From assembly GCF_054482595.1 (NCBI RefSeq), contig NZ_CM137008.1: a stretch of DNA of 64,000 nt. The stretch is one strand, 5' to 3'. A program made the position numbers. Shown piece after piece: positions 18,201 to 24,200 of this stretch. Within the stretch, counting starts at the first letter, position 1. Each line of letters begins with the position of its first letter.

Positions 18201-21200
18201 TATGGTCGTCACTCCTGCAACGGCTCCGGCCATTTTGGTTTTTCCATCCATAATTGCAGCATCAAGTTCGTTTTTGCCATCATGAGTAAAGACAGCGCCT
18301 TTTCCAGCATTGAAGAGGGGAGAGTCCTCCATAACATTAATTGCACGCTGAACAGCATCAAGGCTACTTCCTCCACTATTAAGCACAGCATACCCAGCAT
18401 TTAGTGCATCTGTTAACTTTTCTCTGTATTGTTTTTCTTGTTCAGGTGTAATAGTATCTTTTGTTATGGTGCCAGCTCCACCATGAATTACAAGGCGTAT
18501 TGGCGTTTGAGATTCAGCGTGAGCATATCCTATACACAATGCGAAGGCTGCCATTACTGTTATACCTTTTATTTTATTCATAACTCCTCCTTTTGTCTGA
18601 AGTTTATACAATATAAATATTTAAACTTTTTCCATTATGTTTATTTGACTTCTATCAAAAAAAATTATGCTAATTCGATTTTGCAAAATTTAATTGCACG
18701 CAAATAATATGCACATATTTTTTAGTGTAATGAGTGACTTTTATGGATAGGTTCCCGCTGACCTCTATCACCATACTTCCCCCCGCTTTCAGTAGGACAT
18801 CCGTGTCTGACTTTATATCGAGATTTCATGTGGAAGAGATAAATGCCGGACCTTGAGAAAGAAATATAACTCCCCAGTCTCGTTGAACCCTCTTGTTGAT
18901 CCACTTTTCAAGTACGTAACGATCCAAGTTCCGCCTGCCGTCCAAGGCGTTTGGTGAAGCAGCACGGTCCGTCACTGTCAGCCCACAACTTCCGCTCCCA
19001 CGGGCGCGCCACCGCGCTCTTCTTCTCATTCACCTTCTGTTTCAGTTTGCTCTCCACGAACGCCCTGATGTCCTTCAGCAGATGGTCGCCCGCTTTCCGG
19101 CTGCTTACGTAGATGTTGCAGTCGTCTGCGTAGCGGCAGAAGCTGTGTCCACGATGGCGCTTAACTGCTGCGCTATCGCCTGCTGGATAAGCCTGTCCAC
19201 CACCGTCGGGATGCCTAAGGTTCTCACGCCGCCATCCGGCTTCGGGATATCCATCCGGCGTATTGCCCGCGGCTGGTAGTTTCCGTCAATCAATACCTGC
19301 CATACGCTGCGCCAGTTCTTCTTCAGCCACGGTTTCAACTCCGCCACACCTTTGTTTTCCACCACGCGCTGATAAGCCAGCATCAGGTTTTCTCTCGTTA
19401 TCACCGCTTCCATCGTCAGCGGCACTTCCGCTTTCGTTTGCCCACCCGCCGCCGTGCTGATTTCAGCGCCATCATGCAGCCCTGACGGATACTGTCCGTC
19501 TCCTCTGCCGCTGGCCGCAGTTGCCTGCGCGTGTGCTTCATTAATCATCATCGGGTTCGGATGTCCTAATCACAGTTAATCATGTTCGGCCCTTCATGCT
19601 GCCGGTTTTGCAGCACTACTACGGCGTCGGCTGACTTCTGCCGCCCCATCCCGGCGCCTCACGGCACCGGTAGCACACTGGCAGGGCGACAGATCTCCCG
19701 GGGTAATTCACGCGACTTTCCTGCTTATGCCTGTCGGCTTTACGTCACAGCGTTCCGTGTGAGTATCGGGCTTTGGTGATTTGTGCCACCTTACCCTGCT
19801 GCGCCGCCTTAACCGCTTCCTGTTCGTCAGGCCAGCATTTTGCATCCGGCTTCCTTCAGATTTCACCTCGCGATGAACACCCTTGCCTTCCGCTAACACT
19901 TCCCCTCACCGGGTGTGTGGAGGACTTTCACCTCTTAGTCGTTCTTCAGCCACCACAGTTGAAGAACAGCGCCAGTCACGGCGCTACGCGCCATGCCCGG
20001 CGCACATATGCAACGAGCGCCGATGTAAACGGCACCCGTAATATTTTAGCTGCAGGGCACGCCGTACTTGCCTGTAAAGAGATGGTGCAGTCAGGCCTTT
20101 TGTTTAAGCAGGAGCCCACCGAAATGATTCCGGCAATAGCCTGATTAGCAGGAATCCACATCCTTCTGGGCGTGGAGGATGACAATCTAAAACAAGTTAA
20201 TAAAAAATACCGATAATCGCAGAGTGAAAAACAAAACCAACTATCAGGGGTAAAGCAGTGCGTTTTACCACTTCGAAGGGAGTTATATTTGCTCCACTGG
20301 AAACCGCTATAACCACGCCAGATACGGGAGACATCGCACGCCCCATATGGGAAGCCTGCTGCATAGGCAGGATCATCGATATGGCATTCACGCCCATGCT
20401 GGCAGCGATTTGTGGTATCAGTTCAACAAAAGCCAGAAATGGCGCATTGCCCGATCCCATAATGACAGCTGCAGCCAGTGTAACCAGAGCAAAAACGATG
20501 CCCATCGCAAAAGGGGGTAACCCAACGTGCTCTGCCATCAAAATTAATTGATCTATCGCGCCAATGCTTTTAATCCCATGAGCAAACACACCTGCGGCCA
20601 CCAGTAAGCCCACCACGCCGGTAAATGCTGTCCCCATTCCTTTCAGGAAATGGGTAAACCCGTCACATACAGCTTTCAGATCACATTTACGGACCCATTC
20701 GATCAGCATGCAAATTGCCATTGAGATAAGAACAATCGTAATGATATTGAGATTAATTCCGGTGACAAAAATCTCCGATGAGCCAACGGCCATCAGGATC
20801 GGTAGCATAGGTAGCAGAGCATAATAAGCCGGCGTACTGCCTGCTTTTATGACCGTTGTCGTACCAATTTCATGAGGTAATGTTCCAGCTTTACGATCAC
20901 AGTGTTTCTGCCAGAAAAAGTGGCTGATACCGACAATCAGAACAGTCGCCAGAGCAGCAGGCCCCTGATGATAGACAACATACTCCACCACATCCATATT
21001 TACCGCTTCAGAGCCTCGTATGGCGTCAATGGCTGTCGGTGTGTACGCCACACCAAGAGAGGTGGCAATTACCCCTGCGGCAGACGCTGCTGACAGCCCG
21101 AGTCCGAGCATAATAGGAAACATGGTTCCCATCAGTAAAACAGCAAGTCCGGTAGCTGAGGGGATAGCCAGTTGAAGAAGACTGGCGAAAAGATAAGAGA

Positions 21201-24200
21201 AAAAAAGCAGAACATAGGGGGAACGTAATGTCCGTAATGGCCGGGTTACCACACGGACAACCGCTTCATTCGCACCGATATGGTCCATGTAATGCGCAAA
21301 TCCCATCAGGGTCATAATCATCAGACCGAGATCAGCCGCACGGGTACTGAATAAATTGCGCATGACTTCGAAAGGATCAAGAAAACTAATTCCTGTACCG
21401 GACACGCCCTTCGGTAACACTGTGCCCCAACCGGTAAACCAGGTACAAACCATCAGCGCAAGCCCGGCAATAAAAAGCACGGGTTCTGCACGATATCCTT
21501 TCAGGATTAAGCGAGCAACTATCACGATAACAAGAAGCGCGATAACAACTTTAATCATGACTCACGATTCCCTGTGGTGAACCCATTGAATGTCTCCTGA
21601 ATGATGGCAATAACCACATCACTTGCCGCCCGAAGTGAACGGACTGGAAGATATTCATAGATAGAATGGAAATTATGTGCGCCGGTAAAAATGTTCGGGC
21701 AGGGTAATCCTTTTTGTGAAAGAACAGCGCCATCATATCCTCCACGCATCGCCACCGGTGTCGGAGTAATACCACATCGTTGGTAAGCTCGCAGTGCAAT
21801 GTCGATGGGATAATGCCCCTCTCCCTGCAGACTGTTAAAGACATTGGCGTACCGATCGCTCAGTTGGCAGATCACGCTTCCTTCTCCCCATAATGCACAA
21901 GCACTTTCTGCAAGCTGGCGTACAAATGTCTTCCGGGCGTGATATCCTTCCTCGCTGAAATCTCGTATATCCAGTTTTAGTACAGTTCTGGCACTGTTTC
22001 CCTGTAACTGTTTCACCCAATAATAGCCTTCGCGTCCTTCTGTATATTCAGGCGCTTCTCCTCCTGGCAACATCGAAATGAATTTGTGAGCCATCAAAAG
22101 AGAGTTCTTAAGCTTGCCTTTCGCTGACATAGGGTGTGCAGACTGGCCGGTAAAGATAATTTCTGCATCACCCGCATTCCAGTTTTCGTAAACAAATTCT
22201 CCAATACCGCAGCAATCCAGAGTGTAGCCAAAATCTGCGCCAAACTCTGAAACATCGAAGGCTTTGGCCCCCCGTAACCCCTGCTCTTCATCTGGCACAA
22301 ACCCAACTTTAACTTCTCCATGCCTGATTTCAGGATGAGAAATCAGAAATTGAAGTGCGTTCATTATGGCCGCCAGCGCCGCTTTATCATCGGCCCCCAG
22401 AAGGCTGGTACCATCTGTCACTATAAGATCATCGCCAATATAATTTTTGAGCTCCGGGAATTCACTCTCACGCAAATAAATATTCAGTTCAGGGTTCAGA
22501 CAGAGATCGCCCCCATTATAAGGTAATCGTTGCGCTTTTGTATCGGCTGTCTGTTCGGCACTGGTGTCCAGATGTCCAAAAAAGGAAACGACGGGGATTG
22601 TTTCGTCAGTATTTGCAGGGAGTGTTGCTGTTACGATAGCATTCTCTCTGAGAATAATATCCTCCATACCCAATGCTTCAAGTTCACTCACCAACAATTT
22701 CGCAAGTTTCATCTGACCAGGAGATGAAGGCATGATCCCTTTTGCGCCGTTTTCTCGTGAGGTAGTGGTATTAATTTTTGTATAATTGATAAAGCGTTCG
22801 ACAATATCCATTGAGATGCCTTCTTCAACATTTTCCAGATTTTAGGGACAGTTTATTAACACCTTCTGACTCTGAAGAACGTGAATTTATGCTATGTTCA
22901 GGCTGTCATTTTTCCAAGAGAGAAATGATAATTATGAAGAGCCTTTGCATGATTGAACATAAAATACAGACTCCATTACAGTATGGCGTTTTTTTAGCTT
23001 GTGATGATTAATGCCGTTACACCCTGAAAGACGATTTAGTGATCAAATCATCTAAAAATAATTAATCATAATGGATGTTAAAATCCATGATCTAACTCAA
23101 ATTACAAACCATTAAAGCGGAAGATGGAGTGGAAACATTACGTTTTCTACTCTATTCCAAGATTTATCAATTAGAAGTGCAATAACATTCCCGTGTAAAA
23201 ACTCTTATCTTAATAAGAATCACCATGAGTGACTATATCTACAACGCTGGAAAACCTAGCAGAGATATAGGTTTTCTATGGTGGTAAACAGGTTGTTTTT
23301 CTGAAGGATGTGACCAAACCGGGATGCTATTATAAAATAGTTCTACTTAATCATGATTTAAAAAATCAGCATTAATAATAAGTTTGATTGCGGAATTGTT
23401 TTTTTTGATCTTAATCATATTAGTGCAGCGTTATCTGCATATTTCGGGCTTTTACTGGTTATATTTGATTGCTAAATAACCCACTAATTTTAACGTTATA
23501 AAAATGTGCTTGATATCACGTTTTAAGTTTATCTTATTAGTTTAAATATATTCCATTAGATGGTAATGGTTATGTCATCTGGTGATTATAAGTATTCATT
23601 CTTAATGTTGGATAAGTGTTTTATGAAAACAATTTGTTATTGTCACATTGTTTTCGAAAAATGGAGTTAGAAAATTATGTCTCGTATTGAAAGCGATTTC
23701 CTTGGTGAGCGTGAAGTTCCGGATGATTGCTATTATGGTGTTCAGACACTTCGTGGTGAGGATAATTTCCATATTACTGAAATGCCAATGAGTCAGGAGC
23801 CCTTCTTCATCATTGCCTTCGGTTATGTGAAAAAAGCAGCTGCGATGGCTAATAAGGAGTTAGGTACAATTCCTGCTGATGTTGCGGATGCTTTAATCTG
23901 GGCTTGCGACCAATTAATTGATGGTAAGTACCGGGAACAGTTTGTGACCGACTGGCTTCAGGGGGGAGCCGGAACGTCAACCAATATGAACTGCAATGAA
24001 GTGATTTGTAATCTTGCTGCAGAAAAACTTGGTAGCGTTAAAGGGGATTACAAACGCGTTTCGCCAAACGACCATGCTAATTTTGGTCAGTCCACCAATG
24101 ATACATATCCGACAGCATTACATCTGGCATTGCTGCTGCGAAGCAATGTATTGCTTGAAGCTGTTGAACACCTCGTAGGAGCATTCTACAAAAAGGCTGA

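Follow-up and report, generated by a model that had tools for sequence, protein, structure and literature searches.

The label “anaerobic C4-dicarboxylate transporter” has been put on the whole DcuC family from one characterized Escherichia coli protein. E. coli K-12 has two members of this anaerobic C4-dicarboxylate carrier family (TC 2.A.61), DcuC and DcuD. Peptidase T is a cytoplasmic M20B tripeptidase whose housekeeping gene in K-12, pepT, is monocistronic and lies between potA and roxA. In the abg system of E. coli, a hydrolase and a carrier are encoded together: AbgA and AbgB are M20 aminoacyl hydrolases, and AbgT is a carrier for p-aminobenzoyl-glutamate. Here we analyze a gene pair, pepT2-dcuC2, that joins a peptidase T gene to a DcuC-family carrier gene in a 64,000-nucleotide stretch of E. 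coli DNA (contig NZ_CM137008.1 of NCBI RefSeq assembly GCF_054482595.1; hereafter the window). Both proteins come from known families and the pair is routinely annotated, while a literature search yielded no paper on the pepT-dcuC operon or on DcuC carriers linked to peptidases, the genes appearing only in tables. That the pair is a coupled, conserved, and mobile operon is close to certain. The full reading that we favor, a mobile coupled operon whose carrier imports the substrates of PepT2, probably small acidic peptides, falls just short of an even chance.

The first gene of the operon, pepT2 (positions 21555 to 22811, minus strand), encodes a peptidase of 418 amino acids, and the second, dcuC2 (20197 to 21558, minus strand), a secondary carrier of 453 amino acids belonging to the DcuC family (PF03606) of the ion-transporter (IT) superfamily. 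Both open reading frames (ORFs) and their translations were found where the original prediction had placed them, together with the ATGA overlap of stop and start codons (21555 to 21558, minus strand). In the junction sequence, gtgagtcATGAttaaa, the carrier ATG occupies 21558-21556 and the peptidase TGA 21557-21555, giving an overlap of 4 bp. A weak Shine-Dalgarno-like purine tract (AGGGAA ... GTGAG; 21561 to 21573, minus strand) lies within the 3′ end of pepT2, 3 to 15 nt before the dcuC2 start, and presumably functions in initiation there. In relatives, a GGAG or AGGAG at this position is clearer than in the window and is usually placed inside the end of pepT. A sequence scan found no terminator-like site between the two genes. 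A 4-bp overlap is by itself a frequent operon junction; the part beyond chance is the conservation of the junction.

Models of NCBIfam bore out both family assignments. PepT2 scored 555 bits against PRK13381 (cutoff, 293) and 364 bits against the TIGR01882 equivalog (cutoff, 285.75), and its closest solved relatives, 3IFE, 1FNO, and 1VIX, are all peptidase T. Residues H80, D82, D141, E175, E176, D199, and H382 of PepT2 align to H78, D80, D140, E173, E174, D196, and H379 of K-12 PepT and are all conserved; from the 1FNO structure, we take these to be the di-zinc ligands and the catalytic acid/base. Inspection of the translation revealed no signal-peptide-like hydrophobic stretch at the N terminus. 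Judged by these residues, PepT2 is a peptidase T with an intact active site, and tripeptidase activity is predicted.

DcuC2 likewise passes the generic models of its family, TIGR00771 with 380 bits (cutoff, 187) and NF037994 with 362 bits (cutoff, 100), and PF03606 is among its precomputed Pfam matches. It stays below both equivalog cutoffs that carry the name DcuC (PRK10654, 441 bits versus 513; PRK09804, 327 bits versus 623), and it is 44% identical to K-12 DcuC and 39% to K-12 DcuD. No solved relative in the PDB was found by sequence search. An AlphaFold2 model (predicted local distance difference test [pLDDT], 84.8; predicted template modeling score [pTM], 0.80) found its best PDB folds in TRAP SiaQM, VcINDY, and the AbgT-family proteins MtrF and YdaH, and in this model, the fold of DcuC2 is that of an IT-superfamily elevator-type carrier.

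Conservation and mobility of the pair

We scanned one genome per species across 100,044 species. The scan returned 80 carrier loci, 44 with a carrier at least 48% identical to DcuC2 and 36 at 39 to 43%, and all 80 were mapped for homologs of PepT, AspA, DcuA, AnsB, IaaA, and DcuR. A PepT2-type gene lies directly upstream of the carrier gene, on the same strand, in 42 of the 44 closer loci; the remaining two are a solitary carrier gene in Thaumasiovibrio and a truncated copy in Escherichia. At the 36 more distant loci, which are of the DcuC/DcuD type, pepT is missing throughout. The pair occurs in Citrobacter, Edwardsiella, Providencia, Proteus, Morganella, Budvicia, Pragia, Limnobaculum, and Aeromonas, as well as in Aliivibrio, Photobacterium, Psychromonas, Vibrio owensii, and an Actinobacillus metagenome-assembled genome (MAG). 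The original prediction had taken the housekeeping pepT to be unlinked to any transporter. This holds for the housekeeping pepT of K-12, whose product is 38% identical to PepT2, and does not hold for PepT of the PRK13381 type, which is usually linked to this carrier clade in many genera.

The junction is conserved along with the pair. Among the 42 related loci, 31 have a spacing of −4 (ATGA), as in the window; 2 are at −1 (TAATG), 6 at +2 nt, and 3 at +9 nt. Since the junction is kept across many gammaproteobacterial genera, translational coupling of the overlapping genes, which had been proposed from the window alone, is very probable. The identities of the two proteins to those of the window co-vary across the loci (r = 0.96, n = 42). 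The carrier clade almost never occurs without pepT, whereas PepT2-type genes also stand alone in some genera (see below). The association is thus one-way, and from this we argue that what the carrier does depends on the peptidase.

Similarity at the DNA level to each of the relatives is confined to the pair, running from the pepT ATG to the carrier stop codon; in Citrobacter, Proteus, Salmonella, and Klebsiella oxytoca, the cassette is flanked by unrelated genes. No homologs of aspA, dcuA, ansB, or iaaA were found near the pair in the 42 other pepT-carrier loci or beside the accessory copies of Salmonella and K. oxytoca. With homology limited to the two coding sequences, flanks that change, and no such genes near the pair at these other loci, the pair forms a cassette that is self-contained, mobile, and maintained by selection. 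Its two genes travel together and are under purifying selection: for pepT, 179 synonymous and 51 nonsynonymous codon differences separate the window from Citrobacter, and for the carrier gene, the counts are 220 and 54. There are 22 synonymous and 4 nonsynonymous differences from Escherichia sp. strain MOD1-EC7003.

Some individual copies may be mentioned here. The Salmonella enterica cassette (loci L093 and L094) has the 4-bp overlap and lies beside methyltransferase genes and hha. In K. oxytoca (L095), where the overlap is also 4 bp, a type VI secretion cluster lies on one side of the cassette and a phage-type integrase gene on the other. The carrier copy of MOD1-EC7003 (L025) is 97% identical, lacks the first 114 codons, and is preceded by unrelated sequence, a case of cassette decay.

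The carrier clade and its peptidase partners

Pairing of a carrier with a peptidase extends beyond the pepT2-dcuC2 cassette. In 14 of the 36 more distant DcuC-family loci (L045, L059, L060, L062 to L065, L067, L070, L072, L073, L075, L079, and L080), a gene for an M20 hydrolase lies within about 210 bp of the carrier gene on the same strand; the hosts are several Firmicutes and Aeromonas. Most of these partners are glutamate-carboxypeptidase-like (CPG2-like), namely those of Maledivibacter, Romboutsia, Selenomonas, Schwartzia, Veillonella, a Halanaerobiales MAG, and eight Aeromonas loci; the partner in an Acidaminococcaceae MAG is PepT-like instead. None of the M20 partners whose N termini were inspected has a signal peptide. 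In Campylobacter (L087), a DcuC-family gene follows pepE, which encodes an S51 Asp-X dipeptidase, and lies beside pepT, and Photobacterium damselae has a DcuC-family gene 2.6 kb from pepT. Such family-wide pairing of carrier and peptidase appears to be undescribed.

Because PepT, the glutamate-carboxypeptidase-like M20 enzymes, and PepE all release amino acids, these loci also bear on the idea that DcuC2 handles the product of its peptidase, by uptake or exchange of aspartate or glutamate or by export of excess amino acids from hydrolysis. Aspartate and glutamate are dicarboxylates, in line with the known chemistry of the family, and DcuA, a related carrier of a different family, transports L-aspartate. 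However, cytoplasmic hydrolases need their substrate to be imported, product handling offers no obvious reason for a strict translational coupling, and two genes for SDF-family carriers (the dicarboxylate/acidic amino acid symporter family) adjoin the Campylobacter locus, in addition to its DcuC-family gene. We consider product handling improbable, and less likely than C4-dicarboxylate transport by DcuC2, which is weighed next.

In a neighbor-joining tree, calculated without bootstrap support, the pepT-linked carriers are monophyletic and sister to canonical DcuC, and the M20-linked carriers fall at scattered points on the DcuD side. The pepT-linked clade and canonical DcuC each have a fixed but different residue at 18 alignment positions. 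Positions 128/129, 367, 375, 395, and 400 are among them and flank the conserved loop motifs AIPSATG, GSGNAPF, and PMQQAS, which we interpret as hairpin tips. At the 18 positions, the M20-linked carriers share the residue of the pepT-linked clade in 7 cases and that of DcuC in 2. In an alignment of 20 members of the carrier subfamily, all family-invariant residues are retained in DcuC2. DcuC-family paralogs co-exist within single genomes: DcuC, DcuD, and DcuC2 in E. coli and two paralogs each in Aeromonas finlandensis, Photobacterium frigidiphilum, and Citrobacter sp. strain MGH106.

The main rival to peptide import is that DcuC2 is a true C4-dicarboxylate carrier like DcuC, acting in succinate efflux or in fumarate/aspartate-succinate exchange and co-expressed anaerobically with PepT; peptide-derived aspartate would be converted to fumarate, reduced to succinate, and exported. 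The identity of DcuC2 to K-12 DcuC, the sister position of the two clades, and the loop motifs that they have in common speak for such a role. Against it stand the scores below the PRK10654 and PRK09804 cutoffs, the motif-flanking residues, which differ from those of DcuC and match those of peptidase-linked carriers, and the fact that island-bearing E. coli already have DcuC and DcuD. All told, including the neighborhood and regulatory evidence below, we consider this role for DcuC2 unlikely.

Peptide import is favored on four grounds. The coupled, one-way association persists while all other neighbors change; DcuC-family carriers recur beside three kinds of cytoplasmic peptidase; paralogs of the family co-exist within single genomes; and the residues that flank the motifs group the DcuC2 clade with peptidase-linked carriers and not with DcuC. 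On these comparisons, we tentatively propose that DcuC2 imports peptides, a proposal somewhat more likely to fail than to hold.

The E. coli island and the region upstream of the pair

The 2.6-kb pair is 100% identical to E. coli chromosomal DNA, where the NCBI Prokaryotic Genome Annotation Pipeline (PGAP) annotates it as pepT and dcuC. About 4% of complete E. coli genomes (222 of 5426) contain it. The window is a mosaic E. coli accessory island, and the pair was acquired horizontally by a minority of strains. In order, the island comprises insertion sequence (IS) fragments, an iaaA-like gene, a truncated group II intron with a TnpB fragment, dcuC-pepT, and an 865-bp gap. These are followed by aspA-like and dcuA-like genes, ansB, an orphan dcuR, and a GntR regulator gene with two Dcu carrier genes and an ArgH-like lyase gene. 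Next come clbP remnants, ibrB-like genes, and the core cobUST and asn-tRNA region. G+C content varies from 34% to 52% between adjoining genes, and the island ansB (27055-28101) has ~96% DNA identity to core E. coli ansB, while the aspA-like and dcuA-like genes lack megablast similarity to the core copies. The mixed G+C content and a core-like ansB among neighbors that are not core-like indicate that the neighborhood was assembled piecemeal from Escherichia and foreign DNA.

In an island rich in IS elements, pseudogenes, and gene fragments and carrying a truncated group II intron, the cassette might be silent or decaying cargo, its overlap merely inherited and its adjacency without function in E. 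coli. A very AT-rich upstream region with no promoter identified (see below) would fit such a fate. On the other hand, 219 of the 223 E. coli records have both ORFs intact, with identities of at least 99%, the family-invariant residues and the PepT metal ligands are all kept, and substitutions relative to the relatives are mostly synonymous. Silent cargo is therefore a very improbable reading and, like product handling, less likely than C4-dicarboxylate transport.

For the latter, the island offers a suggestive setting, with aspA-, dcuA-, ansB-, and iaaA-like genes and an orphan dcuR beside the operon. The original prediction had tied the pair, from the coupling of its two genes, to the handling of peptide-derived aspartate or fumarate and to succinate efflux. 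The tie is weak, since the E. coli island is the only locus examined in which the aspA-dcuA-ansB genes adjoin the pair; the neighborhood is absent from the 42 other loci and from the Salmonella and Klebsiella copies and cannot account for the conservation of the pair. We accordingly rejected the Asp/Asn neighborhood as the explanation of the pairing.

The second link to anaerobic metabolism is regulatory. In K-12, FNR directly activates the unlinked genes dcuC and pepE, and a chromatin immunoprecipitation sequencing (ChIP-seq) peak of FNR lies at pepT (PMC3688515), in keeping with anaerobic co-expression of a C4-dicarboxylate carrier and PepT. The divergent region that separates pepT2 from the aspA-like gene (22812 to 23676) is long and AT-rich, as predicted (865 bp, 30.9% G+C), and the promoter of pepT2-dcuC2 must sit within it. 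It does contain the predicted FNR-like palindrome, TTGATCTTAATCAT (23405 to 23418), which has 9 of 10 consensus bases and is also consistent with C4-dicarboxylate transport by DcuC2. An FNR-dependent promoter is expected to have TTGAT-N4-ATCAA near −41.5 (or −61.5), conserved in orthologs. The center of the site is ~600 bp from the pepT2 ATG and ~265 bp from that of the aspA-like gene, and only FNR-like sites with 2 mismatches lie nearer to pepT2. FNR-like sites with at most 1 mismatch number 7 in the window versus 4.4 ± 2.2 in shuffled sequences, which is chance level. A scan for FNR and CRP consensus sequences found no conserved FNR site upstream of the 42 orthologous operons; the same scan revealed only a TGTG...TCAAA resembling a CRP/FNR hybrid site, around −140, and this in some Morganellaceae and Budvicia. 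Thus, the predicted site is present, but its distance, chance frequency, and lack of conservation make FNR control of the operon through it a weak proposition, and with it this part of the argument for a C4-dicarboxylate carrier.

Further searches of the 865-bp region were negative. Rfam gave no riboswitch or small RNA and no family at the gathering score, with one chance-level match to SNORD65, and a repeat search returned only short, chance-level repeats. The region has no homology to the upstream DNA of any relative, and phylogenetic footprinting is impossible because DNA homology ends exactly at the coding boundaries. Two more FNR-like palindromes were seen in the window, TTGACTTCTATCAA (18645-18658), just upstream of the iaaA-like gene, and a perfect one, TTGATGCTCATCAA (28896-28909), inside the dcuR coding sequence.

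Other features of the island include the following. The iaaA-like gene (17550-18611; G+C, 40%) is 1.6 kb downstream of the operon and encodes an isoaspartyl peptidase/asparaginase-like protein that scores 346 bits against an equivalog cutoff of 567; it adds to the Asp/Asn theme of the island. The truncated group II intron (19105-19877, minus strand) lies ~320 bp downstream of the carrier gene and includes a maturase fragment ORF of 148 amino acids (19105-19551) and Rfam matches to domains D1 to D4 (19589-19673 and 19708-19877). A TnpB fragment lies at ~20007-20144. The orphan dcuR-like response regulator gene (28695-29420; G+C, 34%) encodes a protein 57% identical to K-12 DcuR; tblastn found no dcuS homolog anywhere in the window, and the 980 bp upstream of the gene contain no ORF of at least 70 amino acids. 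A second dicarboxylate-type module (30399-36741) comprises a GntR/FadR-family regulator gene (30399-31055), an ArgH-like lyase gene, and genes for two DcuA/B-family carriers whose identity to the island DcuA is 32 to 36%. Between the regulator gene and a Dcu-family carrier gene (32540-33862) is an IS2-like element of the IS3 family (~31170-32515), which is absent there in strain W2-5.

The carrier substrate and comparison with known systems

We propose the following model for peptide import. The cassette, which a minority of E. coli strains gained by horizontal transfer, is an accessory copy of a widespread two-gene operon. pepT2 and dcuC2 are probably co-transcribed, and the ATGA overlap would tie translation of dcuC2 to translation of pepT2, with the two proteins made together. 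DcuC2, an elevator-type carrier of a distinct DcuC-family clade, would import small, probably acidic (carboxylate-rich) peptides, which PepT2, as a zinc tripeptidase, would then cleave in the cytoplasm. In island-bearing E. coli, the released aspartate could feed the fumarate respiration for which the adjacent AspA/DcuA module is suited, an Asp/Asn connection that would be secondary and specific to the island.

Several observations weigh against this model. The closest characterized homolog of DcuC2 is still E. coli DcuC, a C4-dicarboxylate/succinate carrier that is 44% identical and belongs to the sister clade. The DcuC2 clade and DcuC have nearly the same core loop motifs, and a small carboxylate substrate is therefore still plausible. 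Photorhabdus, Plesiomonas, and Endozoicomonas have PepT2-type genes (70 to 76% identity) with no accompanying carrier gene, and adjacency to a hydrolase gene could equally reflect product handling or shared regulation. Lastly, a sigma-70 scan of the minus strand upstream of pepT2 yielded no convincing promoter.

If DcuC2 is one more succinate carrier, the finding is ordinary. Peptide import, on the other hand, would add a new class of substrate to the DcuC family and would constitute a peptide-uptake route distinct from the Opp, Dpp, and POT carriers. Di- and tripeptides that contain aspartate or glutamate resemble dicarboxylates, and the coupling of this clade to a peptidase, together with the recurrent peptidase partners elsewhere, suggests that some members of the family may have peptides, or acids derived from them, as substrates. 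It is tempting to go further and regard the pepT-linked clade, and perhaps other peptidase-linked DcuC branches, as importers of small acidic peptides and not as C4-dicarboxylate carriers; from the sequence comparisons, this is conceivable, though on balance we doubt it. The island itself stacks extra Asp/Asn and dicarboxylate functions and may be a colonization fitness module. Functions of these kinds are linked to anaerobic growth in the gut.

Compared with the peptidase T enzymes of K-12/Salmonella and Firmicutes (1FNO, 1VIX, and 3IFE), PepT2 is alike in family, length, metal-binding and catalytic residues, and cytoplasmic location. It differs from K-12 PepT in the low identity given above and in its best NCBIfam model, which is PRK05469 for K-12 PepT and PRK13381 for PepT2 and Proteus PepT; among the solved PepT structures, 3IFE also gives a higher score with PepT2 than do those of Salmonella and E. 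coli. While the K-12 gene is transcribed alone, pepT2 forms an operon with a carrier gene.

The carrier shows a similar mixture of likeness and difference. DcuC2 shares PF03606, length, and the loop motifs with DcuC and DcuD of K-12, but it belongs to a separate clade with 18 clade-specific positions and falls below the two equivalog cutoffs. Neither dcuC nor dcuD of K-12 has a neighboring peptidase gene, whereas genes of the DcuC2 clade follow pepT in nearly every locus (42/44). The DcuC-family/peptidase pairs of other taxa have in common with pepT2-dcuC2 the carrier family and a cytoplasmic peptidase encoded on the same strand; their peptidases and gene orders differ, and their carriers are only 26 to 43% identical to DcuC2.

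The abgA-abgB-abgT genes provide the nearest functional parallel. In both systems, a cytoplasmic M20 hydrolase is encoded with an IT-superfamily carrier, and the DcuC2 model matches the AbgT-family proteins MtrF and YdaH with a template modeling (TM) score of up to 0.61. The two systems differ in the carrier family (AbgT, PF03806; DcuC, PF03606) and in the M20 subfamily. By analogy, and with carrier and hydrolase genes adjacent as in abgABT, we propose that pepT2-dcuC2 may be a carrier-plus-hydrolase module of the same kind.

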